In this document: in pieces, positions 3,929 to 21,982 of the stretch | Layout: every line of letters starts with the position of its first letter | Numbering within the stretch: the first letter of the stretch is position 1 | NCBI GenBank assembly: GCA_038874355.1 | Contig: JAVZCO010000001.1 | Span: 434,159 to 498,158, forward strand | DNA: 64,000 nt | From: Candidatus Pacearchaeota archaeon | Lineage (GTDB): Archaea; Nanobdellota; Nanobdellia; Pacearchaeales; GW2011-AR1 | Direction: 5' to 3' | Position numbers and translations under genes: made by a program | The notes under the pieces: generated by a model | The model's database searches: none | What the model was told of the DNA's origin: nothing | What the model saw: only the letters and a program-made list of their open reading frames with translations

Positions 3929-3949
3929 TATAAAATTTATCTTGTTAAT

Positions 3950-4709: not shown

Positions 4710-4940
4710 ATGAAAAAAAACAAAAAGAGAAAAAGAAAAAATAAAAAAATAGAAAATATGACTTTTTCAGAATTAATTGAAAAAAATCCCAAAGCTGCTA
4801 AAATTTTTTTTGAAAAAGGAATGAATTGTGCTTTTTGTCCTCTTGCTTCAAAAGAAACTTTAGAACAAGGTGCTAAATCACATAATATTGATATAAAAGA
4901 ATTAATTAAAGAATTAAACAAAAACAAAAAGAAAAAATGA
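4710..4940 (+). CDS. DUF1858-like small redox/disulfide protein (hybrid-cluster-protein-associated type)
   Basis: 76 aa; MTFSELIEKNPKAAKIFFEKGMNCAFCPLASKETLEQ with an FCP motif. Overlaps the downstream IscU start by 4 nt, which suggests an operon. Confidence 0.45.
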   Translation: MKKNKKRKRKNKKIENMTFSELIEKNPKAAKIFFEKGMNCAFCPLASKETLEQGAKSHNIDIKELIKELNKNKKKK

Positions 4941-5404
4941 ATTATAATAAAAAAGTAATAGAATATTTTACTAAGAAGAAATATGTAGGAGAAATAAAAA
5001 ATGCAGATGGTGTTGGTGAAGTGGGTAATATAATATGTGGCGACATAATGAAAGTTTATATAAAAGTTGGTAAAAAGAATAAAGAAGAATATATTGAAAA
5101 TATAAAATTTAAAACTTTTGGCTGTGTCGCGGCAATTGCCTCTTCTTCTGCTTTAGCAGAAATCGCCATTGGAAAGAAATTAACCGAAGCTATTAAAATA
5201 ACAAATAAAGATATATTAAATAAATTAGGTAATTTACCAACAATTAAAATTCATTGTTCTATTTTAGGAGAGCAAGCTCTTACTGAAGCAATATATAATT
5301 ACTTTGTGAAAAATAAAAAGAAAATTCCTAAATTTTTAGAAAAAAAACATAAATTAATAATGAGAGAAAAACAAGCTTATAAAAAGAAATTTTCTAATCG
5401 ATAA
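4937..5404 (+). CDS. iscU: IscU/NifU-like Fe-S cluster scaffold protein
   Basis: Conserved cluster ligands in context: ICGDIMKV, FKTFGCVAAIASSSALAE and IHCSILGEQAL. Confidence 0.7.
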   Translation: MNYNKKVIEYFTKKKYVGEIKNADGVGEVGNIICGDIMKVYIKVGKKNKEEYIENIKFKTFGCVAAIASSSALAEIAIGKKLTEAIKITNKDILNKLGNLPTIKIHCSILGEQALTEAIYNYFVKNKKKIPKFLEKKHKLIMREKQAYKKKFSNR

Positions 5405-5437
5405 ATTTTTAATATTCCTTATTTTTTTATTTATATT

Positions 5438-6796: not shown

Positions 6797-6806
6797 ACTT
6801 AGATTT

Positions 6807-7487
6807 TTAATTTTCTTTATTTAAACTTTTAATTGTTAATATTGTTTTATTAACTTGTTCTTGATTTAGGAAATAAGGTTTAGAAATTTTACATCTGTCA
6901 TTCATTAGATTAAATTTATTATCTTCTCTTTTATCTGTTAAACCTAAAACATGTCCTATTTCATGAGCCAAGTTCCATGCAGTAAAATCTTTACATTTTT
7001 TATCTTTCTTAAAAATAACAAATTTATAACCACATAAATTTCCTCTCCCAAAATTAATACTTTTTCCTTTAATATATATAATACTCATATCAGGACTATT
7101 GTTTGTTATTTTATTTATAAGAGGAATATAAAATTCATTGCAAATTTTACTATCTTCTTCTGAATTTTTTCCAGAAATTTTAGTATAAAGATATTTTCTT
7201 TCTTCTGTTGTTATATTTAAATTTACTTTGTATATATTATTTATTAAGATAGAAATATTATAATTATTCCAAATTTTATTTACTTCACTAACATATTTTA
7301 CTAATTCTTCTTCATTGATTTCGTTATTAATAATATAAAAATTAAAACTAACATTTAATTTTTCAATATTTGTACCTTGCTTTTCTATTGAAAAAGAACA
7401 AGTAAAATTTCTCAATATAAAGATAATAAGAATTACAATAAAAATAAAAACCAAAGATCTGATTATTTTTTTATTATTTTTTAACAT
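6807..7487 (-). CDS. secreted zinc metalloprotease (metzincin-like, HExxHxxGxxD)
   Basis: N-terminal TM/signal sequence; AHEIGHVLGLTDKRED zinc-binding motif. Confidence 0.6.
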   Translation of the reverse strand: MLKNNKKIIRSLVFIFIVILIIFILRNFTCSFSIEKQGTNIEKLNVSFNFYIINNEINEEELVKYVSEVNKIWNNYNISILINNIYKVNLNITTEERKYLYTKISGKNSEEDSKICNEFYIPLINKITNNSPDMSIIYIKGKSINFGRGNLCGYKFVIFKKDKKCKDFTAWNLAHEIGHVLGLTDKREDNKFNLMNDRCKISKPYFLNQEQVNKTILTIKSLNKEN

Positions 7488-7660
7488 AATTTATAATATT
7501 ATTAATATTTTTTATATTTTTTTATAATTATAATTTTTTAGTAATCTAACTTTCTATTATATTAACAAATTGCTTTTTCATTTAAGTAAAGAATTTTTTT
7601 AATCTTCTTTTTAAGATAATAACATGTTAATCAATCTTTTACCCTTCTTTATTTCTTCTT

Positions 7661-7915
7661 TCACCTTCTCTTTCTTTGCTTCTTTTTTATCTTCTTTTTA
7701 GTATAAAAGATTTCTGAAAACAAAAAAATATATAGGATTTCTAAAATGCCAAATGTATTTATAATAAGTATAATGATAAACCATATGACATCTTTATTCT
7801 GAGAAGCTTTCCATAAGGCAATTCCCTTCCATGTTAAACTCCAAATTAAAAGAATTATTAATAGAGTTGGATTAATTCCGAATAAGGAAGAAATTTGATT
7901 ATAATCTAAAGCCAT
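7661..7915 (-). CDS. small membrane protein
   Basis: 84 aa with two hydrophobic helices and a basic C-terminus. Confidence 0.3.
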   Translation of the reverse strand: MALDYNQISSLFGINPTLLIILLIWSLTWKGIALWKASQNKDVIWFIIILIINTFGILEILYIFLFSEIFYTKKKIKKKQRKRR

Positions 7916-7997
7916 TATACTATAATAAAAAAAATCTTTATAAATTTAATTAATTAAATTTTTTTAATTTGTATTAATTATAAAATGGTTACAAAAA

Positions 7998-8013
7998 CGA
8001 AATATTTATAAAC
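7998..8013 (+). promoter_or_regulatory. BRE/TATA-like promoter motif cGAAATATTTATAAAc, placed to give a leaderless transcript for the 8039 gene
   Basis: The motif family cGAAAGATTTATAAA recurs upstream of several genes in this window. Here the TATA element ends about 26 nt before the ATG. Confidence 0.4.
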
Positions 8014-8038
8014 ATAAGAATAATAAAAGTAGTATAAG

Positions 8039-9721
8039 ATGAAAAAATATCAACTAACTTACAGTAAAATTAAAGAGAATGATATTTTAATAAACAACAT
8101 AATAACTCATTATAATTTTGGAAAAAAATATGGCTTAACACAAAAAGAAATATGTAAAGAATTTAATATTTCTCAATATACATTAAGAAAAATTTTTAAA
8201 GAATCTAATAGAAAAATTTACTCAAAAAGAGTTTATAAAGAGGATATTGAAGAGATAGTTAAACAATATAAACAAGGAATTCCTATATATAATGAAAAAA
8301 ATTATTTTGAAACTATTTCAGGTTATCATGGATTAAGCAAAAGTACTATAATAAAATATCTAAAACAACAAGGAGTTTATAATTCTAAAAAAGAATATAA
8401 ATCAAAAAATAAGAAAAATAAAGAAGAAATAATAAAAAAAGAAAAAAATTTAGAAGAAAAAATTTTATATGATAATCAAATAGAAAACAAGGAAATAACA
8501 AAAAATAAAGAGTTAAGAGAAAAAAATTTTTATAGTAATCCTTTTCCTGTTACCTATAATCAAAACAATCCTAAAAAAAACTATATAAATTTCTTTAATA
8601 GATTAGGAAAAATTGCAAAAAAAGCTTTAATTACAACAACAGCAGGTCTAATTTTAGCAGGTTCTTTATTTTTTGGCGGTTATAAAAAAGGTTATTATGA
8701 CGCAAAAATGATTTATAAAGAAAAAGAGAAAATTAATTACGTAGAAAAAAAAGAAGAAAATCCAGCAGAAATAAAAATTTTAGAAGAAATTCAGCCAGAG
8801 AAAAAAATAAAAAGCGAACAAAAAAAAGAAATAAAAACAAAAAAACAAAATATCTATTCTTCACAAAAAAGTAAAAAAGAAAATAAATCTTATGAAAAAA
8901 AAGAAGAAAAAGGATCAAAAATTCCAGAAGAAATAAAAAATATAGTAGAATTAAAGGAAAAAGAAAATAAATCTTATGAAAAAAAAGATGAAATACAAAA
9001 AGAAATTCCTTCAAAAGATCTTTCTCTAAATTTAGAGAAAATATTACAATCAGATTTTAAAGAAGTTAAAATAAAAAAACATTCAATTTATTATGAAGTT
9101 TTAGATGAAACAATTCTTTTTAATATTCCAGAAATAATTGAAGTGGAAAAAGAGACATTGAAAATAAAATATGATAAATTAAAAGAGATTGCTACTAAAG
9201 GAAAAGAATTATTTGGAGAAAGACCTATTATAAAGGTTTGGGAAAGAGAAGGAATAGAAGTTTACGGATTTCCAATAAACACTAATGAAGAAATAGAACA
9301 AAGAGGTATCTGGCAAATAAATACAGATTCTAATGGGAAAAGAATTCCATCAGAATACATAGTTTACAATGATATGAAAACAAAAAATGTTTCTCCATCT
9401 AAACCAGATAAAATAATAAATTTTATTCAATTAGAAGAAATAATAAATAATGCAGAAAAAAATAAAAATTTTATTATTCCTCAACATATAAATAAAGATA
9501 AAAATCATTTAAGTGGTTTTGTTATTAAAAAAGATAAAGATAAAAAAGTAATAGTTCAAAATCAAATATATAATTCTGAAAAATTAAATAAATCCTTATT
9601 GAAAAGTATATCAAAAATAGGCCTTTCTGTCGCTGTTGGGGAAATAATAGGACCAGGAGAGAAAGGTATTAATGGATCTTCACAAATACAAATACCACCA
9701 GGGCCTCACCCAGGGATATAA
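8039..9721 (+). CDS. Lys/Glu-rich membrane-anchored hypothetical protein with an internal repeat
   Basis: 560 aa with one TM segment (ALITTTAGLILAGSLFFGG). Internal duplicated segment KENKSYEKKEEK / KENKSYEKKDE. N-terminal HTH-like region (YGLTQKEICKEFNISQYTLRK). Confidence 0.4.
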   Translation: MKKYQLTYSKIKENDILINNIITHYNFGKKYGLTQKEICKEFNISQYTLRKIFKESNRKIYSKRVYKEDIEEIVKQYKQGIPIYNEKNYFETISGYHGLSKSTIIKYLKQQGVYNSKKEYKSKNKKNKEEIIKKEKNLEEKILYDNQIENKEITKNKELREKNFYSNPFPVTYNQNNPKKNYINFFNRLGKIAKKALITTTAGLILAGSLFFGGYKKGYYDAKMIYKEKEKINYVEKKEENPAEIKILEEIQPEKKIKSEQKKEIKTKKQNIYSSQKSKKENKSYEKKEEKGSKIPEEIKNIVELKEKENKSYEKKDEIQKEIPSKDLSLNLEKILQSDFKEVKIKKHSIYYEVLDETILFNIPEIIEVEKETLKIKYDKLKEIATKGKELFGERPIIKVWEREGIEVYGFPINTNEEIEQRGIWQINTDSNGKRIPSEYIVYNDMKTKNVSPSKPDKIINFIQLEEIINNAEKNKNFIIPQHINKDKNHLSGFVIKKDKDKKVIVQNQIYNSEKLNKSLLKSISKIGLSVAVGEIIGPGEKGINGSSQIQIPPGPHPGI

Positions 9722-9735
9722 AAATCTTATGAAAA

Positions 9736-11370
9736 ATGAAAAAAATATTTATTTTTTCTTTATTTAGTATCTTCACAATTAGTTTAGTTTTTGCTTCTTC
9801 TTATTACTATTATACTACAAATTGGTATTATCAAGGAAATCCAGTTAATAATGTTAGAGCAATGAATTTTAAATGTTTAGATAACGGTTGTTATAATTTA
9901 GGTGAAAAAACGTTTGATTTTACTTCACAGAGTAATAGTATAACTATTCCTTATTCTATTCCATCTCCACAATACGGCTATGCTAGTTATTGGTTCTCTT
10001 CTTGTTATATTTATCAAGAAATGGCTTGGAAACCCAATTCTATCGGGAGTTATTTACAAAATGTTAATTTCACAAAAAAAGAAAATTGTAATTCTTCTAT
10101 AGAAGAATTAATTTTTCCAGGTCTTATAAATAAGAGTCAAAATGTTAATATAACAGCAATAATAAAATCCGCTTTTTTTAATTTACCTGAAGCACCTTAT
10201 GCAGTTCCTTCTGATAAAGATCTTATAAAAGATTTTTTTTCTTCTGAAGTGAATATAACATTAGAAATAAAAAATTCTACAAAAAATATTGTTCATACTA
10301 GTTCAAAAGTAGATTATATTTATATGGATTCTTTAAAAGATATAGAATTTTATTGGATTCCGGATAAAGAAGGAATTTATAATATAACAATAAAAACAGA
10401 AGTTATTGATTGCAAATGTTCTTCTAATATAATAAATAAAAAATCGAAAATAATAATAGTTAATTTTACAGATCAATTTCCAATAAATGATACAAACCCT
10501 CCACAAATTACAATAATCTCACCAGCAAACATAACATATAACACAAACACAATTAACTTCAATATAACAGCAGATGAAAATTTAGATACTTGTATATATA
10601 CTTTAGATGAATGGCAAACAAATATAACCATGACAAAATTAAATGACACATACTTCTATAACATAACTCAATTAAACGACGGAAGCTACACAGCAAGGTT
10701 CTGGTGTAATGATACAGCTAGCAATGTAAATAATACAGAACAAGTTAGTTTTGTTGTTAATACTACAATAGAAGAAAATGACACAACAGAACCAATAATC
10801 TTTTTAATTTCTCCATCAAATAACTCTCAATTTTATGAAGGAAATATTAATTTCACTTATAAAGTAACAGATTTAAGCAATATATCTTATTGTAAATTTT
10901 ATTTAAATAACATAAGTGAATATACAGACAACTCTATTATAAAAGAAATTAATTTAACTATAACAAAAAATTTAACAAAAGGAAATTATTCTTGGTATAT
11001 AGAATGTGTAGATTCTTACAATAATGTTGGAGTAAGTGAAACAAGAACAATACATATTTTAGAAAAACAAAACAATACAGAAGAAACAGAAAAAAACAAG
11101 ACGAAAAAAAATGAAAGAGAAAAAAAAGAAATTTTAAAATTTGTTAAAGAAGAAGAAATATGCGGAAATTATATATGTGAATATTGGTTAGGAGAAAATG
11201 AATATAATTGTGAGAAAGACTGTTTAGAAAATATAAAACTTAATTATGAAAAAGAAAAAGTAACATTAAGCAAAAAAGAAACCAAAAATAATCTTATTTC
11301 ATTAATAATTTTTTTAATTTTATCAATTTTTATTCTTTTAATTATTATTTATCTTATTTTAAAAAAATAA
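9736..11370 (+). CDS. secreted cell-surface protein rich in N-glycosylation sequons, with C-terminal TM anchor
   Basis: Signal peptide; dozens of N-x-S/T sequons; Cys-rich pre-anchor region; C-terminal hydrophobic helix followed by KK. Confidence 0.5.
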   Translation: MKKIFIFSLFSIFTISLVFASSYYYYTTNWYYQGNPVNNVRAMNFKCLDNGCYNLGEKTFDFTSQSNSITIPYSIPSPQYGYASYWFSSCYIYQEMAWKPNSIGSYLQNVNFTKKENCNSSIEELIFPGLINKSQNVNITAIIKSAFFNLPEAPYAVPSDKDLIKDFFSSEVNITLEIKNSTKNIVHTSSKVDYIYMDSLKDIEFYWIPDKEGIYNITIKTEVIDCKCSSNIINKKSKIIIVNFTDQFPINDTNPPQITIISPANITYNTNTINFNITADENLDTCIYTLDEWQTNITMTKLNDTYFYNITQLNDGSYTARFWCNDTASNVNNTEQVSFVVNTTIEENDTTEPIIFLISPSNNSQFYEGNINFTYKVTDLSNISYCKFYLNNISEYTDNSIIKEINLTITKNLTKGNYSWYIECVDSYNNVGVSETRTIHILEKQNNTEETEKNKTKKNEREKKEILKFVKEEEICGNYICEYWLGENEYNCEKDCLENIKLNYEKEKVTLSKKETKNNLISLIIFLILSIFILLIIIYLILKK

Positions 11371-11547
11371 AAATTTATATAAAAAATATTAATTTTAAAT
11401 TATATCTTAAAATATAGAAATATTTATAAACTTCAATTTTTTTAAGTAAATTACTTTATACAATAAGTTGAATATAAAATTAAATAAAAATACAACATAT
11501 TGTATTTTAAATATATTTTTAATCAGAAATAAAAAGGGGAACAAGAT

Positions 11548-11979
11548 ATGAAATGTATTTATTGTGGCCACAAAGAAACGAAAGTAACTAATAAAAGGGA
11601 TATAAATGATTTTGTTAGAAGGAGGAGAGAATGTTTAAGATGTAAAAAAAGATTTACAACTTATGAAAAAGCAGAAATAGATTTGATTGTTATAAAAAAA
11701 GATGGGAGAAGAGAAAAATTTAATAGAGAAAAATTAAGAAACGGTATATTAAAAGCATGTGAGAAAAGACCAATAGCAATAGAAAAAATTGATAAGGTTA
11801 TAGCAGAAATAGAGGAAGAATTAAGAAAAAGAGGAAAAGAAATAAAAACTAAGATTATAGGGGAAATAGTAATGAAAAAATTAAAAAAATTAGATAAAAT
11901 AGCTTATATTCGATTTGCTTCAGTTTATAGAGAATTTAAAGATATAAGTGATTTTAAAAATGTAATGAAAGAGGTATAA
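11548..11979 (+). CDS. nrdR: NrdR transcriptional repressor (Zn-ribbon plus ATP-cone)
   Basis: MKCIYCGHKETKVTNKRD...CLRCKKRFTTYE zinc ribbon, then an ATP-cone (VIKKDGRREKFNREKL). Confidence 0.8.
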   Translation: MKCIYCGHKETKVTNKRDINDFVRRRRECLRCKKRFTTYEKAEIDLIVIKKDGRREKFNREKLRNGILKACEKRPIAIEKIDKVIAEIEEELRKRGKEIKTKIIGEIVMKKLKKLDKIAYIRFASVYREFKDISDFKNVMKEV

Positions 11980-11980
11980 A

Positions 11981-14104
11981 ATGGGAATTGAAAAAATAAT
12001 AAAAAGAGACGGTAGAATAGAAAAATTTGATCAGGAAAAAATAACCAATGCAATAAGAAAAGCAGTAAAAGCAGTTGGCGGAACAGATTTAGAAAAGAGA
12101 CCTAAATATCTTTCAGATTTAATTGTTAAAGAAATAGAAAAAAATATAGTAAGTAAAGGAAGAATACCACAAGTAGAAGAAGTACAAGACATTGTAGAAA
12201 AAATTTTAGTTGAAAATGGGCATTATCAAACAGCAAAAGCCTATATTTTATATCGTAATACACATAAAGAGCTAAGAGAATTAAAAGGACTTTTTGATAC
12301 AATAGAGGTGGTAGATGAATATCTTAATGGACAGGATTGGACAATAAGAGAAAATTCAAACATGGGTTTTTCACTTCAAGGATTAAATAATTTTATTTCA
12401 AATAAAATAGTTCCAAAATATTGGTTAAGAAAAATTTATCCAGAAAAAATAAGAAAAGCCCACGAAAATGGAGATATTCACATTCATGATCTAGGAATTC
12501 TAGGACCTTATTGTGTTGGTTGGGATTTAGAAGATTTATTAATTACAGGAATAACAGGTGTACCAGGAAAAGTCGAAGCTTCTCCGGCAAAACACTTAAG
12601 AACAGCTTTAGGGCAAATATGTAACTTTCTTTATACATTACAAGGAGAAGCTGCTGGTGCTCAAGCCTTTTCAAATTTTGATACATTTTTAGCTCCATTT
12701 GTAAGAAAAGATAATTTAAGTTATAAAGATGTTAAACAATGTTTACAAGAATTTTTATTTAATTTGAATGTACCAACAAGAGTAGGTTTTCAAACTCCTT
12801 TTACAAATATAACTTTAGACTTAAAAGTACCACAACATATGAAAGATAAAGCAGTTATAATCGGAGGAAAATTAGAAAATTTAGTTTATAAAGAATTTCA
12901 AGAAGAAATGAATATGATAAATAAAGCATTTGCAGAATGTATGTTAGAAGGAGATGCAAAGGGAAGAGTTTTTACTTTTCCTATTCCAACATACAATATA
13001 ACTAAAGATTTTGATTGGCAAAATACTAGTTATGATTTAATTTGGGAAATGACAGCTAAATATGGAATTCCTTACTTTTCAAATTTCATAAATTCTGATA
13101 TGAAACCAGAAGATGCAAGAAGCATGTGTTGTAGATTAAGACTAGACAAAAGAGAATTAAGTAAAAGAGGGGGAGGTTTATTTGGTTCTAATCCATTAAC
13201 AGGATCTATAGGAGTAGTTACTATTAATCTTCCACGTATAGGTTATCTTTGCAAAGATGAAAAATCTTTTTTTACTAGATTAGAAGAATTAATGGAAATT
13301 TGTAAGGATAGCTTAGAAATAAAAAGAAAAGTAATAGAAAACCTTACAGAAAAAGGATTATATCCTTATTCAAAATTTTATTTAAGAAATATAAAACAAA
13401 GATTTAATGAATATTGGAAAAATCATTTTTCTACTATAGGAATTTTAGGAATGAATGAAGCAATAATGAACTTAATGCCTAATGAAAATATCGCAACAGA
13501 AGAAGGAAGAAAATTCGCAATAAATGTTCTAGATTTTATGAGAGAGAAATTAAGAAAATATCAAGATGAAACAAATAATTTATATAACTTAGAAGCAACT
13601 CCTGGAGAAGGAACTACATATAGATTCGCAAGAATAGATAAAAAAAGATTTCCAGATATAATAGTAGCAAATGAAGAAGCTGTGAAAAAAGGTTATGCAC
13701 CTTATTATACTAATTCTACACAACTTCCTGTAAATTATACAGATGATATTTTTGAAGCTCTTACATTACAAGATGATTTACAAATAAGATATACTGGTGG
13801 AACTGTTTTTCACTGCTTTGTTGGGGAAAAATTAAAAGGAAATGACGTTAAGAATTTAGTTAAAAAAATAGCAGAAAATTTTAAACTACCTTATTTTACT
13901 ATAACACCAACTTTTTCTGTTTGTCCAGAACACGGCTATTTATCAGGAAAACATGAAATATGCCATAAATGTATGAGCATAGGGAAAAAAACAGAAACAG
14001 AAGTATATTCAAGAATAGTAGGTTATTTAAGACCTATACATCAGTGGAATGATGGAAAGCAAGCAGAATTTTATGATAGAAAAATGTTCAATATTTATAA
14101 ATGA
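11981..14104 (+). CDS. nrdD: anaerobic ribonucleoside-triphosphate reductase, class III
   Basis: 707 aa starting with an ATP-cone (IKRDGRIEKFDQEKI); SMCCRLRLD catalytic region; C-terminal CPEHG...CHKC zinc site; RxxGY glycyl-radical region near the C-terminus. Confidence 0.85.
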   Translation: MGIEKIIKRDGRIEKFDQEKITNAIRKAVKAVGGTDLEKRPKYLSDLIVKEIEKNIVSKGRIPQVEEVQDIVEKILVENGHYQTAKAYILYRNTHKELRELKGLFDTIEVVDEYLNGQDWTIRENSNMGFSLQGLNNFISNKIVPKYWLRKIYPEKIRKAHENGDIHIHDLGILGPYCVGWDLEDLLITGITGVPGKVEASPAKHLRTALGQICNFLYTLQGEAAGAQAFSNFDTFLAPFVRKDNLSYKDVKQCLQEFLFNLNVPTRVGFQTPFTNITLDLKVPQHMKDKAVIIGGKLENLVYKEFQEEMNMINKAFAECMLEGDAKGRVFTFPIPTYNITKDFDWQNTSYDLIWEMTAKYGIPYFSNFINSDMKPEDARSMCCRLRLDKRELSKRGGGLFGSNPLTGSIGVVTINLPRIGYLCKDEKSFFTRLEELMEICKDSLEIKRKVIENLTEKGLYPYSKFYLRNIKQRFNEYWKNHFSTIGILGMNEAIMNLMPNENIATEEGRKFAINVLDFMREKLRKYQDETNNLYNLEATPGEGTTYRFARIDKKRFPDIIVANEEAVKKGYAPYYTNSTQLPVNYTDDIFEALTLQDDLQIRYTGGTVFHCFVGEKLKGNDVKNLVKKIAENFKLPYFTITPTFSVCPEHGYLSGKHEICHKCMSIGKKTETEVYSRIVGYLRPIHQWNDGKQAEFYDRKMFNIYK

Positions 14105-14129
14105 AAATAAAAAGAATTTTTAGATAAAA

Positions 14130-14885
14130 ATGAGAATAATAGGTTTAGAGAAAAATTCTTTTATAGATTATTCTGGTAAATGTTCCCTTGTTATTTTTAC
14201 TAAAGGCTGTAATTTTAATTGTCCTACTTGTCATAATAAAATTGCTGTAAAACCAAATAAAAGAACAAATTTAATAAAAGAAGAAGAAATTTTTTATTAT
14301 TTAGAAAAAAGAAAAAAATTTATTGATGGTTTAGTTATTTCTGGTGGAGAACCAACTATACAAAAAGATTTAATTTCTTTTTTAGAAAAGTGTAAAAAAG
14401 AAAAAATACAAATAAAATTGGATACAAATGGCTATAAACCAGATATTTTAGAAGAAATTTTAGAGAAAAATCTTGTAGATTATGTTGCTTTAGATATTAA
14501 AGGGCCTAAAAATATTTATTCAGATTTAGTAGGAATTAACATAGATATTAAAAGAATTGAAGAAAGTATAAAAATAGTAAGCAAATTTTCAGAATACGAA
14601 TTTAGAACAACTATCGTACCTATAAAAAGGAATAAAGATTATATTTCTTGGATGAAAATTGAAGAATTAAAAGATACTTTAGAATGGGTTTATAATATAA
14701 TAAAAAATAAAGAATCAAAATATTTTCTACAAAAATTTTTTTCAAGAGAAGAAAAACAAATGTTAAATAAAAATTTCTCTTTAAATTATTTATCAAAAGA
14801 ATTACATGAAACTCCAAATTATTTAATAGAAGAAATGAAAAAAATAGCAAAGAAATATTTTCCAAAAATAGAGATAAGAGATTAA
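14130..14885 (+). CDS. nrdG: anaerobic RNR activating enzyme (radical SAM)
   Basis: CNFNCPTCHN cluster motif, VISGGEPT, and its position directly after nrdD. Confidence 0.8.
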   Translation: MRIIGLEKNSFIDYSGKCSLVIFTKGCNFNCPTCHNKIAVKPNKRTNLIKEEEIFYYLEKRKKFIDGLVISGGEPTIQKDLISFLEKCKKEKIQIKLDTNGYKPDILEEILEKNLVDYVALDIKGPKNIYSDLVGINIDIKRIEESIKIVSKFSEYEFRTTIVPIKRNKDYISWMKIEELKDTLEWVYNIIKNKESKYFLQKFFSREEKQMLNKNFSLNYLSKELHETPNYLIEEMKKIAKKYFPKIEIRD

Positions 14886-14950: not shown

Positions 14951-15025
14951 GGTCCCGTAGCTCAGCCCGGTTAGAGCACTGGCCTTTTAAGCCAGGTGTC
15001 GGGGGTTCAAATCCCCTCGGGGCCA
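14951..15025 (+). tRNA. tRNA-Lys(UUU), no encoded CCA
   Basis: Acceptor ggtcccg/cggggcc with a U3:G70 wobble. D arm gctc-agcccggtta-gagc. Anticodon stem ctggc/gccag with loop cTTTTaa. T arm ggggg-ttcaaat-cccct, discriminator A. Confidence 0.85.
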
Positions 15026-15099: not shown

Positions 15100-15327
15100 C
15101 TTTTTGTCGAATTCGGATTATTGAGACTTTGTTTTAATAAGCTCAGCCACACCTTTTTCATATTTGGAAGCAGGATATATTGGCCAGAATATTGTTTTAG
15201 CAGCTGCAGAAAATAATATAGGGGCATGTCCTGTTAGCGGTTTGTAGATGATACGTTAATAAAAATATTAGATTTGACAGAAGGGGAAATACCAGTTTAT
15301 ACAATAAGTTTAAGGAAAAAGAAATAA
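15100..15327 (+). pseudogene. nitroreductase-family gene remnant, frameshifted and truncated, with no start codon
   Basis: One frame reads YIGQNIVLAAAENNIGACPVSGL*, the classic nitroreductase C-terminal core. The next frame reads DDTLIKILDLTEGEIPVYTISLRKKK*. No intact ORF. The region is more GC-rich than its surroundings. Confidence 0.45.
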
Positions 15328-15355: not shown

Positions 15356-16342
15356 ATGGAAGTTGATATAATTAATATTTTTAATTCAAATAAAAAAATT
15401 TCTGTGAAAATAGTTAATTTATTGGACAAATCAAAACTCTTAAATGATAAAGAGAAATTTTTTGATAGTTTATTAGATGATATAAAAAATGATGGAGAAA
15501 AAAATCACGTAGGAGGATTTTTAAATGAAAACTTATTAAAAAACCAGTTAGAAAGAGAAATTTTTGACAAAAGAATAATTAAAGTTTCAATAAATACGTA
15601 TAAAAAACTAAAAATTAAAGATATAAAACATTTAATAAAAGAAGTTATTAGTCATGTTAAAGCTTTTTTAAATTCTAAAAAAATTTTAGTTTATGTTTTT
15701 CCTACATTTTCGAACTTTATAATCAAAAAAATGAATGGTTGTAGTGGCTTTCTTGCTTACAAAAACATTATTCATATTTATTTATACCCGACAAAAAACT
15801 GGAAAACAAACTTTAAATGCACTCTTTTACACGAATTTGCTCATTGTATACAACCTTACTATTCTTATAAAATGAACCTTTTCGATCATCTAATTGCTGA
15901 AGGTTTAGCAGAACATTTTCAAATGGCCTTTACTAAAAAAAGAAATGCTATTTATTATACTTCTAAAGATAACAAAAAAATGGAGGCTTCTGTTTTGACT
16001 TTTGGTATTGGTTTACAAAGAATCCTATTTTCTATTATAGATTCAAATAGGAATAATAAAAGTATCAATTTTCCGGAAGAAATCAGGCCTTTTGAATATG
16101 CTATTGTATTGCACAAAGGGGAACAGGAATTAGCAGAGAGATGCTATTCTTTTTTAAAAGCAAAAAACAAAGATGTTTACATTGATGATAGAGACCTAAA
16201 TTTTAAAGATAAAATGGATTATGCTGATTTTCTTAATGTTCCTTATAAAATAATTATAGGAAAAAACTCATTAAATTCGAAATTAGAAATTAAAACTTCA
16301 AAGGATGTTACTATATATAAGACACTTGAGGAACTAATATGA
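15356..16342 (+). CDS. HExxH zinc-hydrolase domain fused to a class-II aminoacyl-tRNA synthetase anticodon-binding domain (HGTP_anticodon-like)
   Basis: LLHEFAHCIQ HExxH motif at about aa 160. C-terminal 90 aa PFEYAIVLHKGEQELAERCYSFLKAKNKDVYIDDRDLNFKDKMDYADFLNVPYKIIIGKNSLNSKLEIKTSKDVTIYKTLEEL matches the ProRS/ThrRS/GlyRS/HisRS anticodon-binding fold pattern. Overlaps the next gene by ATGA. Confidence 0.6.
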   Translation: MEVDIINIFNSNKKISVKIVNLLDKSKLLNDKEKFFDSLLDDIKNDGEKNHVGGFLNENLLKNQLEREIFDKRIIKVSINTYKKLKIKDIKHLIKEVISHVKAFLNSKKILVYVFPTFSNFIIKKMNGCSGFLAYKNIIHIYLYPTKNWKTNFKCTLLHEFAHCIQPYYSYKMNLFDHLIAEGLAEHFQMAFTKKRNAIYYTSKDNKKMEASVLTFGIGLQRILFSIIDSNRNNKSINFPEEIRPFEYAIVLHKGEQELAERCYSFLKAKNKDVYIDDRDLNFKDKMDYADFLNVPYKIIIGKNSLNSKLEIKTSKDVTIYKTLEELI

Positions 16343-17366
16343 TAAAGCCTAAAAAATTAGAAAAAGGAGATACCATTGCTTTTATTGCCCCAGCAGGTGG
16401 TTTAGCGGCATTAGTAAAGCATAGATTAACATTAGCTAAATCTTATTTTGAGAAAAATGGTTATAAAGTAAAAATCTATCCAACTGCATTGAAAAATATT
16501 GGCTTTAGTTCTGATACACCAGAAAATAGGGCAAAAGATGTTAATGATTCCTTTTCTAATCCAGATGTAAAAATGATACTATGCACTATAGGAGGAAATT
16601 CTTCTCATCAAATTCTAGATATTTAGATTTTGATTTAATAAGAAAAAATCCTAAAATATTTTGTGGTTATTCAGATATAACAACTTTGCATTTTGCATTA
16701 TATACAAAATGTAATTTTATAACTTTCTATGGTCCAACGGCAATTGCTGAATTTGGAGAAAAAATTAATTTCGAAAAGTATACTGAAGAGTATTTTTTTA
16801 AAGCAGTTGCTTCTAATTTACCTATCGGCAAGGTTTCACCATCAGAAAAATGGACTGATTGCAGAAAAGCAAATTGGCTAAAAAAAGAGGATTTACGATT
16901 AAAAAGAGAATATAAGAAAAATAAAGGTTATGAGTGGTTAAGAAAAGGAAAAGCTGAAGGAAAAATTATTGGCGGTTGTATTACTTCAATGATGCATACA
17001 AAGGGAACTGAATATTGGCCTGACTTTTCAGAAAAAATTCTTCTTTTAGAAACACCTGAAGGAGAATCTTTTTTTAAAGGAGAGCCCTTATCAAACATAG
17101 ATGGTTTTTTAGCAGATTTAAGGCTACTAGGTATACTTAAAAAAATAAAAGGTCTTATTTTTGGTAGAGGATTTGGGTATTCTGATGACGAGATAGAAAA
17201 ATTAAAAGAAATAATACTCTTTAACACACGAGGGTTTGACTTTCCAATTTTATACGGATTAGATATAGGTCATACTGATCCAAAAATAACTATTCCTTTA
17301 GGAGTAAGCGTTACTTTAGATTCTGAAAAAAACATTTTTTCAATAGATGAATCTGGAGTAAATTGA
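16339..17366 (+). pseudogene. S66 LD-carboxypeptidase (LdcA/MccF family) interrupted by a -1 frameshift near 16620
   Basis: ORFs 16339-16626 and 16581-17366 together give a complete S66 protein: IAFIAPAGG ... CTIGGNSSHQILD | YLDFDLIRKNPKIFCGYSDITTL. The frames join after a 1-nt slip at about 16620. No slippery heptamer is visible. Confidence 0.6.
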
Positions 17367-17370: not shown

Positions 17371-17586
17371 ACGCAACCCCCTTTTTATTGTAAAATCGTG
17401 TCCCGCCACCTCCGATTTCTGACTTCTTGCCATTCTAATCTGCCTCTGTAGGGGTTGCCACCGAAAATTCTCCTGTTGTTGCCTTCGTTAAAATTCACAA
17501 AACGAAAACAAAAAACCCAATTTGCTTCGCAAACAAAGTCTAACATTGGTTAAGCGGTTTCGCTCGCTACACCCAAAGATTTTTCT
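17371..17586 (+). repeat. 216-bp GC-rich intergenic element, copy 1 (identical to 21470-21685); candidate structured ncRNA or recombination repeat
   Basis: Perfect identity with copy 2 over 216 nt. About 45% GC in a roughly 25% GC genome. Contains the long-range complementary pair gcaacccc ... ggggttgc. Starts 5 nt after the S66 stop codon. Confidence 0.85.
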
Positions 17587-17628
17587 AAAAAAACGGGCAG
17601 GGGCTTTTTATAATGGACAATTAGTTTT

Positions 17629-18306
17629 CTAGAAAAAATACTTATATATTTTTCCAATTTTTAACTCTTTTTTATTTCCACTTTTGGAAAAAAAATAAGC
17701 GGAATTGATTCCAATTATTTTATTGGAAGAATTTTTTAAATATATTCCCGTTCCTTCTGGAAGACCAATAATTTCCATATCGGTTTCTTCAATAATCTTT
17801 AATATCTCTTTATCATATTTTTCTTCATAGTGACAAAATACGCCTCTTTCGTTCAATAAATTCATCCCTTCTAAATCAACTAATTTAAATTTATTTTTAT
17901 CTAGGGGTCTGGCAGTAATAATGCTTTTTGTTAATATTATCGCTCCGGCACTTATCCCATAAACTACTTTACCTTCTTTGATAAATTTTCTCAATATTTC
18001 AATAAAATTAGAATCTTTCAATTCTTTTAATAACCTAAAAGTGTTTCCTCCACCGATAACGATTCCTCTAACATTGTTTAAATCCTTAATTGACTTATCA
18101 TTTAGAGTCGTCCACATTTCAAAATTACTATGGTTGAAAGGTGAAAATAAATTTTCAATCATCCAATTTAAAGAAGATTGAAATTCTTCTTTTTCCCTTG
18201 AATGAGGAATAAAAATTATTCTTCCATTTCCTACACTCTTAAAAAATAACGAGTTTATCTCTTTTATTTGTTCCCCTTTCCCTCCTCCAGATAGTATCAA
18301 TTCCAT
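17629..18306 (-). CDS. S51-family peptidase (dipeptidase E / cyanophycinase-like)
   Basis: 225 aa; GGGNTFRLL and nucleophile motif GISAGAIIL; Rossmann-like class-I glutamine amidotransferase-like fold pattern. Confidence 0.7.
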   Translation of the reverse strand: MELILSGGGKGEQIKEINSLFFKSVGNGRIIFIPHSREKEEFQSSLNWMIENLFSPFNHSNFEMWTTLNDKSIKDLNNVRGIVIGGGNTFRLLKELKDSNFIEILRKFIKEGKVVYGISAGAIILTKSIITARPLDKNKFKLVDLEGMNLLNERGVFCHYEEKYDKEILKIIEETDMEIIGLPEGTGIYLKNSSNKIIGINSAYFFSKSGNKKELKIGKIYKYFF

Positions 18307-18326
18307 ATTATAGATTTATTGCGTTT

Positions 18327-19511
18327 CTATTTTTTTAATCTTTCTATTAACCCTAAAGGCAAATCATACTTTTGGCCTAATTCTTTTTTAGAAACACTAG
18401 GCAAAATAATTTTTTTATTTTGTTCTATAGCTATCTTAATATATTCTTCATTTAATAGTTTTGGACTATCAAAGTATCCTGATTTTGTACCTTTTTTTAG
18501 TTGATTGAGGTAATTCTCTAAATTAAAGTATTCTCTGCAGTAATTTTGAAGATAATCTTTAAACTCTTTCTCACATTTTTTATATGTTTCTTCTATTCTT
18601 TTTATTTCTTCCTCAAATATGGGATTTAATAAATCTAAAAGCCCATCAGTTTGACTTTCTGATGCTCTAATTCTCGCTAAAACCTTTTTGGTTAAATATC
18701 TGATTTTGTTCCCTGGTCCTTTTGCTGAAGGAAAAATTCCTTGATTGGATGCTTCATTTAATGTTAGAATATGGTCTCCCACATATTGTGCATCCTCTTT
18801 CTGAAGATATGGGAAATTTGAAATTATTTTTTCAGTTATTTTTTTTAATTTTTCAATTTCAAAAACAGAATTATAACCATTGATTACTGCAACTAATCTT
18901 TCTAAGGCCATTCCAGAATCAACTAATTTTCTATTTTGAGGATCAATGTACGCTATATTCCACAACTCCCATTCTGTGGGAATATGTCCAATTTCCATTC
19001 GCTGCCCCTCTAAAGGGCCATCCTTAATCCTCCAAGACAATTTTGTTGGATCAAGTCTTCTAATTTCTATTCCTAACGAAGAATATCTTTTGGCATTTTC
19101 TGAAATCTCTTTTTTGTTATCTGGAACATTTAAAAAAATTTCATTAGGCGGAACCCCAGTCGTAATCAAATAGTCAATCATATAATCTGTGATCTTTGAA
19201 AAATTTGTATTGTTAAAAGAAAAAACTTCTAGCATCTTAAAGTTTGTTAAATGTCTAGGGGAATATCCAACTCTATAATCGTTATCCGTTCTTAGACAAT
19301 TTTGTATTCTTGCTAACTGTTGCATATTGGACTCTTCATTTCCCCTAAATACATTATCATATTTAATTCCCCCACAAATCATAAATAACACGGCCGCACT
19401 TTTATTTTCGGGGAGCAGGTTTTCTGATTTTTCAGTGCAAAAACCTAGTTTAGAAAAATAATCCAAGTATTCTACTTCTACTTCTTTTAATTCTTTAATT
19501 TTTTTATCCAT
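18327..19511 (-). CDS. standalone alanyl-tRNA synthetase catalytic-core paralog (class IIc aaRS N-terminal domain only, 394 aa)
   Basis: Aligns to the AlaRS N-terminus: YLDYFSKLGF (FLDFF.SKGH), SAAVLFMICGGIKYDNVF (LLFTNAGMNQFKDVF), IQNCLRTDNDYRVGYSPRHLTNFKMLEVFSF ([35 protein letters not shown]). Lacks the tRNA-recognition, editing and C-Ala domains. Confidence 0.7.
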   Translation of the reverse strand: MDKKIKELKEVEVEYLDYFSKLGFCTEKSENLLPENKSAAVLFMICGGIKYDNVFRGNEESNMQQLARIQNCLRTDNDYRVGYSPRHLTNFKMLEVFSFNNTNFSKITDYMIDYLITTGVPPNEIFLNVPDNKKEISENAKRYSSLGIEIRRLDPTKLSWRIKDGPLEGQRMEIGHIPTEWELWNIAYIDPQNRKLVDSGMALERLVAVINGYNSVFEIEKLKKITEKIISNFPYLQKEDAQYVGDHILTLNEASNQGIFPSAKGPGNKIRYLTKKVLARIRASESQTDGLLDLLNPIFEEEIKRIEETYKKCEKEFKDYLQNYCREYFNLENYLNQLKKGTKSGYFDSPKLLNEEYIKIAIEQNKKIILPSVSKKELGQKYDLPLGLIERLKK

Positions 19512-19566
19512 TCTATAGTGGTATAATTTAGATATATTTATAAATATTCTTATTTTCTTTTAAAAT

Positions 19567-20646
19567 ATGGGTATTCCAAGATTAAGATATCAGAATGAAA
19601 TGTGGGATGTGAATCTACCCTCAATTTTGGCATATACTTTTAAAAAAGAAGATATAGATCTTTTTATTAGAGGCAACTCAATACCCTTAGATTTTGATAC
19701 TAATTTAACTGAGAGGTGTAACGCTAATTGTAAATATTGTGCAACACAGGGAGGAAAATTGGATGTGAGATTTAATTACGATAATAGTTTACCTAAATTA
19801 ACAGATGAGCATATTTCAGAGATAATTAAACAATTAAATTTGCTTGGAACAAAGACTTTCTTTTTGTGTAGCAATGGAGAACCCTTACTAAACCCAAAGA
19901 GATTTCTAGATATTTTAGATAAAGCGGGCGATAAAGAGATAAATATTATAACATATACCAATGGAATAACATTAAATAAAAATATTTTAAAGGAATTATA
20001 TAAAAGAAAAGTCAATTTAGTAATAAAATTAGAGTCTTTAAATCCAAGAAAAAACGACGAGATTATCTTTGGCAAGAATGAACCAAAAAACAAGTCTTAC
20101 AATTATTATAGTTTTAATAATCAAAAAGTACCTCGGGGGATCATTGAAGCATTTGAAGTTTATGGAAGTGACTCTAATTGTTTAGGTATCGAAACAATTA
20201 TCTTAAAAGACAATATTGATGAAATAATAGACATCCGAAATTGGGTTTATGATTTGGGAAGCAGTCAATTCTTAAAGCATTTATATCCCCTAGGATATGT
20301 AAAAATTAGTAGGGAAGAAGTTATGCCAGATAATAAAAAAGAAAAAGATTTAGTACAAAAAATAATCGCTTTCGATTCTAAGTATGGTTTTATCTATCCT
20401 TCATTTCAAACGCCCGACCACTATTCTTATGATTCAAGAAGATTTATGAATAATTGTGTGAATATTTATGGTTTTCCTTTTAGAATGTTTGCTCATGAAT
20501 TTGGAGGAATCTATCAGTCTTCTCAAATAGTTACAAAGAACTTTGGATTTGGAACAGAAAGAATTATCTCTCTTTTTGACTCTAAAGGTAATATTAATAT
20601 GAAAGAATATTTTAATAAAATTGAAGAACAAATCAAAAATGAATAA
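19567..20646 (+). CDS. radical SAM enzyme
   Basis: CNANCKYC (CxxxCxxC) at about aa 51; SNGEPLLNP glycine-rich SAM motif. Divergent from the AlaRS paralog across a 55-bp spacer. Confidence 0.7.
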   Translation: MGIPRLRYQNEMWDVNLPSILAYTFKKEDIDLFIRGNSIPLDFDTNLTERCNANCKYCATQGGKLDVRFNYDNSLPKLTDEHISEIIKQLNLLGTKTFFLCSNGEPLLNPKRFLDILDKAGDKEINIITYTNGITLNKNILKELYKRKVNLVIKLESLNPRKNDEIIFGKNEPKNKSYNYYSFNNQKVPRGIIEAFEVYGSDSNCLGIETIILKDNIDEIIDIRNWVYDLGSSQFLKHLYPLGYVKISREEVMPDNKKEKDLVQKIIAFDSKYGFIYPSFQTPDHYSYDSRRFMNNCVNIYGFPFRMFAHEFGGIYQSSQIVTKNFGFGTERIISLFDSKGNINMKEYFNKIEEQIKNE

Positions 20647-21433
20647 TCTTTCAAGAATTACATTTGGAACATGGGGATTGCCAGAATGGAAGGATTATTC
20701 ACAAGATTATTGTAAAGAACTATTTGATTTTGCTTATAGAAATGGAATAAAGAGTTTTGATACAGCATTAGTCTATGGTGGTGGAAGGATGGAACATTTT
20801 CTATCTTATCTTCCAAAAGAGTGTTTTATTGCAACCAAAATTCCTGCAAAAAATAAATCAAAAGAAATAATTGATGCCTATGATTCGTTATGGATTAAAA
20901 AATGTATAGATCAATCAAGAAAAAGATTGAAAAGAGATTCTTTAGATTTAGTTCAGCTTCATAATTGGGATTATAATTGGAATAATTATCAAACATTAAT
21001 TGATTTAATGGTAAATTTAAAAGACACTGGATTAGTAAAAAACTGGGGGATCTCCTTACCATTTGAATCTCCGAATAATCACAGCGAAATATTGGACGAA
21101 CCTGTAATAAACTTTTTTCAAGTACATTATAATATCTTACAACAACAAAATAAAGATATTATTAAAAATTTAAAACAAAAAAACAAAAAAGTTCTTCTGC
21201 GATCTGTTTTATTGCACGGATTTTTGATGGGTTCAATCAATCCTCCTTTTTGTAAAAAGTATAATTTAGAAAAACAAAATTTAAAGAAAGAAAGGGATAG
21301 GTTATTTTTAGGTTTAAATAAAAGAGAAATACTAAAATATTGTTTAAATAACGCTTTTTTAGTAGGGGCAGATTCTATCGTTTTAGGCATAACTAAGAAA
21401 GAGCATATAACAAGTTTGGAAGAATATTTATAA
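20621..21433 (+). CDS. aldo/keto reductase family oxidoreductase
   Basis: ITFGTWGL N-terminus typical of AKRs, FDTALVYGGG, and a (beta/alpha)8-like pattern. Overlaps the radical SAM stop by 26 nt, indicating an operon. Confidence 0.65.
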   Translation: MKNKSKMNNLSRITFGTWGLPEWKDYSQDYCKELFDFAYRNGIKSFDTALVYGGGRMEHFLSYLPKECFIATKIPAKNKSKEIIDAYDSLWIKKCIDQSRKRLKRDSLDLVQLHNWDYNWNNYQTLIDLMVNLKDTGLVKNWGISLPFESPNNHSEILDEPVINFFQVHYNILQQQNKDIIKNLKQKNKKVLLRSVLLHGFLMGSINPPFCKKYNLEKQNLKKERDRLFLGLNKREILKYCLNNAFLVGADSIVLGITKKEHITSLEEYL

Positions 21434-21469
21434 TTTCTTTTTGTAAAGAACAAAAAAAGTCCTGCCCTT

Positions 21470-21685
21470 ACGCAACCCCCTTTTTATTGTAAAATCGTGT
21501 CCCGCCACCTCCGATTTCTGACTTCTTGCCATTCTAATCTGCCTCTGTAGGGGTTGCCACCGAAAATTCTCCTGTTGTTGCCTTCGTTAAAATTCACAAA
21601 ACGAAAACAAAAAACCCAATTTGCTTCGCAAACAAAGTCTAACATTGGTTAAGCGGTTTCGCTCGCTACACCCAAAGATTTTTCT
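21470..21685 (+). repeat. 216-bp GC-rich intergenic element, copy 2 (identical to 17371-17586)
   Basis: Perfect direct-repeat copy located 37 nt after the AKR stop codon, and preceded by aaaaagtcctgccc, which is nearly the reverse complement of the gggcaggggcttttt motif that follows copy 1. Confidence 0.85.
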
Positions 21686-21894
21686 TGATAAAATGGGAAA
21701 AATTCAATCCAGACTTCTTTATTAGGATAGAAAAAATATTCTATTTGTAGAGATAAAATCTGGAAATTATGCAAAATATATAAGCAATTTTGAAGCTGAA
21801 TTAAAAGAATAGCGCAGTATATAATTTAAAAAATAATTATCACCCGCCTTTGACTTGAGAACCATCAGCCGTTATTGCTACAGAGAATAAAATT

Positions 21895-21910
21895 CGAAAG
21901 ATTTATAAAT
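21895..21910 (+). promoter_or_regulatory. BRE/TATA promoter motif cGAAAGATTTATAAAt upstream of rpoH
   Basis: The same 15-mer family occurs upstream of the genes at 38968, 36580, 47661, 8039 and 1344. It is purine-rich like a BRE and precedes a TTTATAAA TATA box. Confidence 0.45.
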
Positions 21911-21982
21911 CTTGGTTAGAATTCATTTAGTATTAGTAAGTTGTAAAAGAAATTTTATTAAAATTAATTTACTGCTATAAAT

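Follow-up and report, generated by a model that had tools for sequence, protein, structure and literature searches.

What are the two identical repeats that enclose a block of four genes next to the RNA polymerase genes of an uncultured archaeon, and how might they have come to lie there? We examined a window of 64,000 nucleotides from a Candidatus Pacearchaeota archaeon (assembly GCA_038874355.1, contig JAVZCO010000001.1, positions 434,159 to 498,158 of the forward strand; coordinates without a locus name are those of this window), in which a sequence that we call R occurs twice, as R1 (17371-17586) and R2 (21470-21685). Between them lie genes for an S51 peptidase, a protein related to the catalytic domain of alanyl-tRNA synthetase (AlaRS), a radical SAM protein and an aldo/keto reductase (AKR). 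With a probability of roughly 0.6, we read R1 and R2 as decayed junction copies of an integron-like cassette system of Pacearchaeota and DPANN archaea, flanking a mobile cassette in the slot between tRNA-Lys and rpoH.

The two copies are 100% identical over exactly 216 nt, and the match ends sharply on both sides. They lie in direct orientation, 4,099 bp apart from start to start, with 3,883 bp separating them. These values bear out a first-pass annotation, which had been made from the letters of this DNA and had described perfect 216-nt repeats in the same orientation about 3.9 kb apart. It was also right that each copy begins shortly after the stop codon of a plus-strand gene: R1 starts 5 nt past the TGA of an S66 peptidase open reading frame (ORF) and R2 starts 37 nt past the TAA of the AKR gene. 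The high GC content that it had noticed is real, although the value is 42.6% and not about 45%, against 24.2% for the window as a whole; the plus strand is C-rich (60 C, 32 G). By blastn, there is no third copy of R in the 64-kb window. An exact 23-mer from R had no match in viral, GTDB-genome or metagenome collections, and blastn of R gave no match to plasmids and only 41-nt chance matches to phages. A 53-aa ORF on the minus strand inside R was rejected as a gene, as it has no homologue and is absent from the protein collection.

The identity of R emerged from a locus, L015, that carries the same four genes (8081-11862 of L015). In L015, nearly every intergenic gap between 3.8 and 14.2 kb (3856-14202) contains a GC-rich element on the same strand, amounting to at least eight co-oriented elements, one per gap, which separate LCM, APH, a small ORF, HD, the four-gene block, GNAT and a 232-aa ORF. 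The start of the R minus strand resembles the 3′ half of the L015 element adjoining the AKR gene. Single-sequence blastn and nhmmer searches of the L015 gaps against the window returned AT-rich noise only, and the alignment of R with L015 was used as a lead only, until a motif scan gave true homologues. The scan employed a gapped pattern common to the R minus strand and the L015 element, TTTGGGTGTAG N3-16 CGAAACC N1-3 TTAA, which matches one viral contig and 96 metagenome contigs, the latter drawn from more than 40 datasets; the approximately 95 metagenome contigs that remain after chance matches are set aside split into subfamilies. The matches in the viral L119 (IMGVR_UViG_3300032373_000042) and its metagenome twin L108 lie in apparent coding sequence with no surrounding family homology and are most likely due to chance.

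About 75 loci, spread over more than 40 datasets, have an L015-type hairpin, with a median ungapped pairwise identity of 85% over 209 nt and at least 27 different downstream flanks. One hairpin subtype of about 200 nt (TAACATCGGGCTTAAGGG...TTTGGGTGTAGTGAGGTGCAACCGAACGAAACCCTTTAAGCCCTGTTAG...AAAAAATCAAAGT) is highly conserved in about 75 contigs among L023-L118 (for example L026 4935-5068 and L033 124-257); it lies at or close to the end of many contigs, including some with lengths from 60 kb to 1.1 Mb. The R-type element is present in nine loci, which match the R minus strand far past the pattern and are 85-90% conserved over about 130 nt in at least eight contigs, with the consensus AAAAGCCCCTGCCCG-TTTCGTC-AGAAAAATC-TTTGGGTGTAGCGA(C)AGCGAAACCGCTTAACCAATGTTAGGC-TTTGTTTGCGAAGCAAATTG...GAAGGTTAAGCGAAGGA...GCAACCCCTC.... 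R-type members come from metagenomes Ga0272448 and Ga0078972, which are also the source of the closest relatives of the window genome.

From these loci we built two profiles. The first, composed of what we call the right bracket and the 5′ module of eight R-type metagenome loci and containing no window sequence, has just two nhmmer matches in the window, each on the minus strand: 17609-17450, with E=3.9e-37, and 21697-21549, with E=4.9e-30. The second, made from the 3′ module and left bracket of four other metagenome loci than the window, also matches the minus strand only, at 21522-21436 (E=1.8e-8, bracket included) and 17423-17358 (E=2.3e-7, without the bracket), and nowhere else in the window. 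The matches to the first profile show that R is a conserved member of this family of junction elements; they also set the minus strand of the window as the sense strand, rather than the plus strand that a 3′-untranslated-region element would have used and that had been taken as the relevant one, and they identify AAAAAGCCCCTGCCC (17595-17609) as the conserved 5′ start of the element.

On the sense strand, an intact junction consists of the right bracket (AAAAGCCCCTGCCC), the 5′ module, an attC-like hairpin (AAC...GTT), the 3′ module and the left bracket (GGGCAGGGGCTTTT). The 5′ module comprises a half-site ending in GTTAGGC, small C-GAA-G hairpins and then GCAACCCC; the 3′ module contains ...TTCAGAATTCGG...GGGGTTGC, after which the left bracket follows. 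In the relatives, the outer stem is formed by counterparts of these sequences, GCAACCCCTC (5′ module) and GAGGGGTTGC (3′ module). The R-type module usually lies 20-150 nt past the stop codon of a co-oriented gene, with a canonical hairpin (TAACAT...) directly after it. Just outside GGGCAGGGGCTTTT in L052, L067, L070 and L071 there is a hairpin ending in GTTAGGC and then a 3′ module (...GGCGTGGCAAAAT...TTCAGAATTCGGCGGTGGCGGGACGCCACGATTTTTTATAAAATAAGAGGGGTTGCGTTA) that is clearly homologous to the 3′ end of the R minus strand (GTCAGAAATCGGAGGTGGCGGGACACGATTTTACAATAAAAAGGGGGTTGCGTAA, continued in R2 by GGGCAGGAC).

Measured against this layout, both window junctions have lost their centre. Intact junctions span about 420-440 nt (L096 2230-2667; L034 363-781), compared with about 245 nt for each of the two in the window. 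The gap between the two profile matches, which in intact junctions takes up 96-129 nt plus about 70 positions of the 3′ module, is only 27 nt in R, with the same sequence in both copies, and both 3′-module matches begin at model position 80, positions 1-79 being absent from R. R thus represents a junction that has lost the central hairpin, together with the sequence immediately around it, and that retains the 5′ module, a 27-nt remnant and the distal 3′ module. Because R1 and R2 have the same derived deletion, either one was copied from the other or both descend from a common ancestor that had already undergone it, which supports the earlier suggestion of a recent duplication or gene conversion.

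The deletion also explains the complementary 8-bp pair GCAACCCC/GGGGTTGC (17373-80/17451-58 in R1, 21472-79/21550-57 in R2), which had been noticed at the outset as able to close a large stem. The pair is present, and in intact relatives it is the outer stem that encloses the attC-like hairpin; in the window the hairpin is gone, so that the folded outer stem (17373-17458 in R1 and, with identical sequence, 21472-21557 in R2) encloses only 70 nt. A further conserved stem partner has also mutated in R, from GGTTAAGCG to TTTTAACG, which fits decay. In the folds of R, an 8-bp stem that contains AAC/GTT surrounds a poorly paired interior. What R keeps is a half-site on the minus strand, CCGCTTAACCAATG followed by TTAGAC, at 17538-17557 (R1) and, identically, 21637-21656 (R2), which corresponds to a 3′ arm plus the core-like GTTAGAC without the 5′ arm. 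It aligns with the L′/R′ arm of the syntenic L015 hairpin and with GTTAGGC of the R-type homologues. A complementary upstream partner for this 3′ arm was not found in R-type members (score 5.0-6.5, background 5.9).

The two junctions differ in their brackets. The right bracket, M′ (17595-17609; GGGCAGGGGCTTTTT on the plus strand, the above AAAAAGCCCCTGCCC on the minus strand), lies between the S51 stop codon and R1 and occupies the first positions of the 5′-module match; the left bracket, M (21454-21467; plus AAAAAGTCCTGCCC, minus GGGCAGGACTTTTT), lies between R2 and the 3′ end of the AKR gene, within the 3′-module match. Both thus sit between the two copies and face the gene block, and not outside the pair, where the first-pass annotation had placed them. 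M′ is found directly upstream of every R-type homologue, and M at the same position in L052, L067, L070 and L071. Each R copy in the window is bracketed on its block-facing side only. R1 abuts the S66 stop codon; at R2 the family homology runs 12 nt past the perfect repeat (21686-21697), with a degenerate trace of an upstream bracket (CCCATTTTATCA as compared with CCCGTTTCGTCA). Such a layout is expected either from recombination between a circle and a resident junction or from a one-cassette array. When the 4,099-bp unit is circularised, the folded brackets pair as an outer stem around exactly R, with spacers of 8 nt and 2 nt. The idea that the motifs are specific to this block was dropped, because unrelated gene sets in L070 (291/4751), L067 (311/1429) and L052 (319/3217) lie between the same motifs, GGGCAGGGGCTTT to their left and AAAGCCCCTGCCC to their right, as does the block in the window. 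The support for bracket pairing is comparative. In L015 the brackets are unit-specific and pair across the gene rather than across the element: a perfect 19-bp inverted repeat surrounds the GNAT gene and overlaps its last codons (12176-12194/12681-12699), GGGCAGGACTT/AAGTCCTGCCC surround the 232-aa ORF (12875-12885/13652-13662), and AGAGGGGGCTTTTA/TAAAAGCCCCCTCT surround the four-gene block (~8040/~11900). To our knowledge, inverted-repeat brackets around individual cassettes have not been described as a feature of integron cassettes.

The enclosed genes form a unit that is found in different surroundings. By Pfam assignment, the cargo (17629-21433, on mixed strands) consists of the S51 peptidase (17629-18306, minus), the AlaRS-like protein (18327-19511, minus), the radical SAM protein (19567-20646, plus) and the AKR (20621-21433, plus), in the same arrangement in L015 and L018. 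The AlaRS-like protein is rare: it has eight other clusters (9 in all) among 5.8 billion proteins, and no relatives of it were found in GTDB genomes. All four genes occur in L015 and L018, three in L019, which lacks the reductase, and some of them in L020 and L021. The outer flanks are HD-domain and GNAT genes in L015, a tRNA gene in L018 and unrelated sequence in L019, whereas the short flanks of the block itself are conserved, with a terminator-like hairpin and then AAAAGCCCC.... The same module with different outer flanks in L015, L018 and L019-L021 is therefore movable. Of the possibilities raised at first, terminal repeats of a mobile or recombination unit thus came closest, in the form of a movable four-gene module with repeats from a cassette-junction family. 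Travelling as a single cassette, the four genes may make up a small aminoacyl- or peptide-modifying pathway. In L018 (~4030-4073) about 100 nt separate the end of the block from the 3′ part of an opposite-strand tRNA gene; there, as in the window, where the island follows tRNA-Lys, it is placed beside the 3′ end of a tRNA.

The site occupied in the window is itself variable. The gene order is NrdR, NrdD, NrdG, tRNA-Lys(UUU), a DUF2268/anticodon-binding protein, an S66 LD-carboxypeptidase, R1, the cassette, R2 and rpoH (Pfam), with rpoH-rpoB-rpoA′ in the window and a Candidatus Pacearchaeota archaeon annotation on its proteins (for example MEM3405866.1). The window is archaeal in these features and in a tRNA gene with a 48-nt intron. 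Relatives retrieved through RpoH (76-88% identity) keep the synteny NifU-rSAM-NrdR-NrdD-NrdG...rpoH-rpoB-rpoA, but the NrdG-rpoH interval differs among them, with a histidine kinase in one lineage and only a tRNA-Lys about 130 nt upstream of rpoH in another. Its edges in the window are tRNA-Lys(UUU) (14951-15025, plus), whose counterpart directly precedes rpoH in L009-L011, where the slot is empty, and the rpoH promoter/leader (21893-21982, plus), which is conserved upstream of rpoH in L004-L011; L004-L008 have other content in the slot. The ~6.9 kb from tRNA-Lys to the rpoH leader (~21893) are thus lineage-specific. R-like sequence is absent upstream of rpoH in all RpoH-fetched relatives (blastn, nhmmer), on which ground R was rejected as a conserved rpoH leader element. 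Neither the 207 nt between R2 and the rpoH promoter nor the 330 nt after tRNA-Lys contain homologues of the family, and no inverted-repeat brackets were found around the S66 and DUF2268 genes.

Several further observations were made in and around this slot. About 90 nt upstream of rpoH (AAAGATTTATAAAT...TTTAGTATTAGT.AGT.GTAAA...) are conserved in relatives of 81-88% RpoH identity and are probably the promoter of the RNA polymerase operon with a conserved leader. The S66 LD-carboxypeptidase gene (16339-17366, plus) is divided between two ORFs that overlap (16339-16626 and 16581-17366). The Pfam match reaches profile position 83 in one ORF and goes on from 83 in the other, which indicates a frameshift, either in a pseudogene or through a sequencing error; Logan contig L003 shows the gene split in the same way. 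Past tRNA-Lys, at about 15150-15250 (plus), frame +1 reads ...LEAGYIGQNIVLAAAENNIGACPVSGL*, which looks like the C-terminal remnant of a nitroreductase-type gene, as gene debris in the slot. Farther upstream, a tRNA gene (3807-3928, plus) has a 48-nt insertion in the anticodon loop of the type of an archaeal intron (54 bits by Rfam, missed by ARAGORN). Two large genes at 8039-11370 (plus), between the radical SAM gene and NrdR, keep their position in relatives (L006 243-3378; L009 3067-6774) and encode products of 560 aa, with a weak match to the resolvase-type HTH_7 domain, and of 544 aa, with Ig-like domains.

How far does the family resemble an integron? Its hairpins are 70-145 nt long (median 104), and in all 24 of the 24 loci with two or more hairpins they lie on one strand, the orientation of the array elements being independent of that of neighbouring genes. 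The L015 cores, folded as single-stranded DNA, share one architecture: an AACA/TGTT pair, two unpaired bases, a long stem and inner triloop mini-hairpins. The stem arms covary, differing between L015 elements yet matching within each element, and four arm types that had been retrieved by an internal motif, and not by complementarity, pair with their own upstream regions (scores of 9-12 against a background of 5.9). The neighbouring elements e2 and e3 of L015 are near-identical from TAAC to GTT, and e4 and e8 share about 93% identity across some 175 nt, one of their mini-hairpins showing a compensatory change. Mini-hairpins are densely packed within the elements, with either GNA triloops closed by C-G (C-GAA-G, C-GTA-G) or T-GCA-A/T-GAA-A loops; one such sequence, TTTGCGAAGCAAA, occurs in the R minus strand at 17521-17533 and 21620-21632. 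Hairpins of the C-GAA-G/C-GTA-G or d(GCGAAGC) type are unusually stable in single-stranded DNA, and their presence suggests, by analogy, that the elements fold in that form.

Tyrosine recombinase genes are found in 9 of about 97 loci. In six of these loci, Xer-like genes lie 0.6-1.6 kb downstream of a same-strand hairpin and are followed by dense, hairpin-free, core-like genes, as at the edge of an array; the XerA-like genes are L033 1070-1873, L073 1335-2138, L076 5570-6424, L081 1062-1865, L099 651-1487 and L111 1726-2535. The best match of the recombinases is to NF040815 (XerA-like), at 184-247 bits against a cutoff of 220, which four of eight pass.

Archaeal integrons and clusters of attC sites lacking integron integrases (CALINs) have been documented, including in Nanoarchaeota/Pacearchaeales (Ghaly et al. 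2022, PMC9668308); the motifs of our family are not in the supplement lists of that study, in which few attC sequences are listed. The family resembles such arrays in its co-oriented, imperfect AAC...GTT hairpins of attC length between gene cassettes, in the unpaired bases beside the R-box pairing and the covarying arms, in its accessory cargo (GNAT, APH) and in the tyrosine recombinase gene at the array edge of several loci. It differs from them in its ~430-nt junctions with conserved 5′ and 3′ modules and brackets, in recombinases that are XerA-like and lack the IntI insert, and in larger cassettes with mixed gene orientation. We know of no such modules or brackets in canonical attC sites. 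R departs further from attC: it has only a half-site in place of a hairpin with RYYYAAC...GTTRRRY ends, and its perfect identity extends well past any crossover point between G and TT. What the window holds, in terms of an integron or CALIN, is two co-oriented junction relics 4.1 kb apart and no intact attC. An IntI gene beside an array, as in a complete integron, is present neither in the window nor among the family recombinases, all of which score below the TIGR02249 cutoff. The family would work like an integron, and we call it integron-like and not an integron.

Other known systems offer partial parallels. In the sedentary chromosomal integrons of Vibrio cholerae, near-identical copies of the V. 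cholerae repeats (VCRs) flank successive cassettes, and homologous recombination can delete or duplicate cassettes. The likeness lies in a cassette between near-identical sites; VCRs, however, are intact attC sites of about 120 nt on which IntIA acts, whereas R is 216 nt long, hairpin-less and without an integrase nearby. Integrative mobile elements exploiting Xer (IMEX) and archaeal XerA-dif systems integrate a circle at a short chromosomal site and leave a copy of the site on each side, and the recombinases seen near our family are exclusively tyrosine recombinases of the Xer type. Yet dif sites are double-stranded, about 28 bp long, without long hairpins and present once per chromosome, while the family sites are long, hairpin-rich and arrayed, and no dif-like site was identified. 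Miniature inverted-repeat transposable elements (MITEs), repetitive extragenic palindromes (REPs) and bacterial interspersed mosaic elements (BIMEs) are likewise short, GC-rich and palindromic, and they occur between genes in multiple copies at which assemblies break. R, by contrast, lacks target-site duplications and terminal inverted repeats, and the family differs from them in its strict placement at cassette boundaries in one orientation.

A number of results weigh against our reading of R as a decayed cassette junction. The score of the initial R-L015 local alignment was reached by 16 of 1000 shuffles (20 of 500 in a first Smith-Waterman test), which is weak when taken alone, and a profile made from seven L015 3′ modules misses R. 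The complementarity of M and M′ is not significant within the window (11 of 14 positions matched, a value equalled in 287 of 1000 shuffles). Only 23 of 95 hairpins fit RYYYAAC strictly and only 12 of 95 fit GTTRRRY. The median hairpin spacing of 2.2 kb, a value probably inflated by undetected hairpins, is above that of classical integron cassettes, and gene orientation is mixed. Against TIGR02249 the recombinases reach 172-208 bits, below the cutoff of 265, in a two-piece alignment from which we conclude that the IntI-specific insert is missing, and the 64-kb window contains no recombinase (no PF00589 protein). About 100 loci yielded no further junction without a hairpin, and R, without a complete hairpin, cannot as it stands be an active attC-type site. 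Finally, a k=31 de Bruijn graph fits the integrated unit and a chromosome with one R plus a 4.1-kb circle alike.

This last point leads to the explanation that the layout is an artefact of assembly, in which the chromosome would have one R between S66 and rpoH and the 4.1-kb R plus block would be a separate circle threaded into the contig. An independent k=31 assembly of run SRR30574052 yielded three contigs (L001-L003), one of them covering the inner block and the other two the flanks with S66 and with rpoH; all of them break off exactly 30 nt into an R copy, so that the repeat and all four junctions exist in the reads, and such a graph is equally compatible with an artefact, as are block-facing brackets that would close on R in a circle. 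We consider an artefact improbable, as both copies are on one source contig of 575,629 bp, a 216-bp repeat can be resolved by paired-end or long reads, and the block has no replication gene; were it true, it would confirm and not replace the mobile-cassette reading. Similarly improbable is a structured non-coding RNA gene in two copies, or a riboregulator in 3′ untranslated regions, with the conservation of the family reflecting RNA function. The upstream sequences of the two copies differ on either strand, leaving no common external promoter, although a TATA-like TTATAAAAA precedes R1 on the minus strand; R does contain several stems, but its fold stability is unremarkable (z of -0.4 on the plus strand and -1.8 on the minus strand), and the hairpin, the most conserved structural unit of the family, is the part deleted, and a conserved stem partner has mutated as described. 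The GC-richness of R in a genome of 24% GC and the 85-90% conservation of its relatives would suit an RNA, whereas the array elements keep one orientation regardless of the flanking genes, and the abundant C-GAA-G/C-GTA-G mini-hairpins are typical, as a matter of general knowledge, of stable DNA hairpins. Membership of a known Rfam family, an outcome that the first-pass annotation had allowed for, was seen neither for R nor for its full-length relatives: Rfam 15 gave no match on R at gathering thresholds and nothing better than E=0.8 at any threshold tried, up to E<=10, only tRNAs in the window, nothing at E<=0.01 on full-length junction relatives and nothing on L015 or L018.

Slightly less probable again is the view of R as a MITE-like non-autonomous transposon that entered the neighbourhood of the block in two independent insertions. 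In favour of it are the many copies and wide distribution of the family, the frequent ending of contigs at family members, and the resemblance of the brackets to terminal inverted repeats, but each copy has one bracket, facing the block, and the ends of R (ACGCAACC.../...GATTTTTCT) do not form an inverted repeat. No target-site duplication is shared by the flanks TTTC/AAAAAAAC and CCTT/TGATAAAA, there is no transposase nearby, and family members always sit at cassette boundaries beside co-oriented hairpins instead of being scattered. A plain scar of segmental duplication, unrelated to any element family, would account for the perfect identity and the close spacing; it is very improbable, being refuted by the profile matches to independent metagenome homologues with E down to 1e-37. 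We also rejected template and variable repeats of a diversity-generating retroelement (the copies are identical and outside coding sequence, and no reverse transcriptase is nearby), elements of the IS200/IS605, TnpB omega-RNA or IS110 bridge-RNA kind (no such gene nearby) and an att site of the kind used by SSV-type or tRNA-targeting integrases (the window lacks an integrase, and R bears no relation to the tRNA).

Returning to the reading of R1 and R2 as decayed junction copies, we propose that the family hairpins serve as recombination sites at which Xer-like recombinases would insert and excise circular cassettes. A circular cassette composed of bracket, genes, bracket and R would then have recombined with a resident copy of R to give the layout in the window; gene conversion within a one-cassette array could have given the same outcome. 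The perfect identity of the copies would in either case reflect recent recombination or gene conversion between them. Since R has no hairpin, present exchange would rely on homologous recombination, or possibly on the half-site CCAATG-TTAGAC. Today the 216-bp repeats may thus act mainly as substrates of homologous recombination, through which the 4.1-kb unit would loop out as a circle and return, and site-specific exchange at the retained GTTAGAC half-site is possible.

A bolder reading, which we put forward tentatively and think rather unlikely, is that of a previously undescribed, DPANN-wide cassette system distinct from canonical integrons. It would combine ~430-nt nested-palindrome sites (bracket motifs, outer stem and attC-like apex), XerA-like recombinases without the IntI domain and inverted-repeat brackets that close around the junction in the circle. 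R would be the first known case in which a junction without its hairpin continues to move a cassette of several genes, whether by way of the GTTAGAC half-site or through homologous recombination.

The findings bear on how DPANN archaea, host-dependent organisms with tiny genomes, acquire and exchange accessory genes, and they point to a widespread and only partly canonical integron-like system in these archaea. If confirmed, they would broaden what is known of integron-like capture of genes among Archaea, provide profiles for cassettes that standard attC models may miss, and give a reason why assemblies of these genomes break at such loci. In the genome examined here, they mark the S51/AlaRS-like/radical-SAM/AKR block as cargo that is horizontally mobile and lies directly upstream of the RNA polymerase operon.

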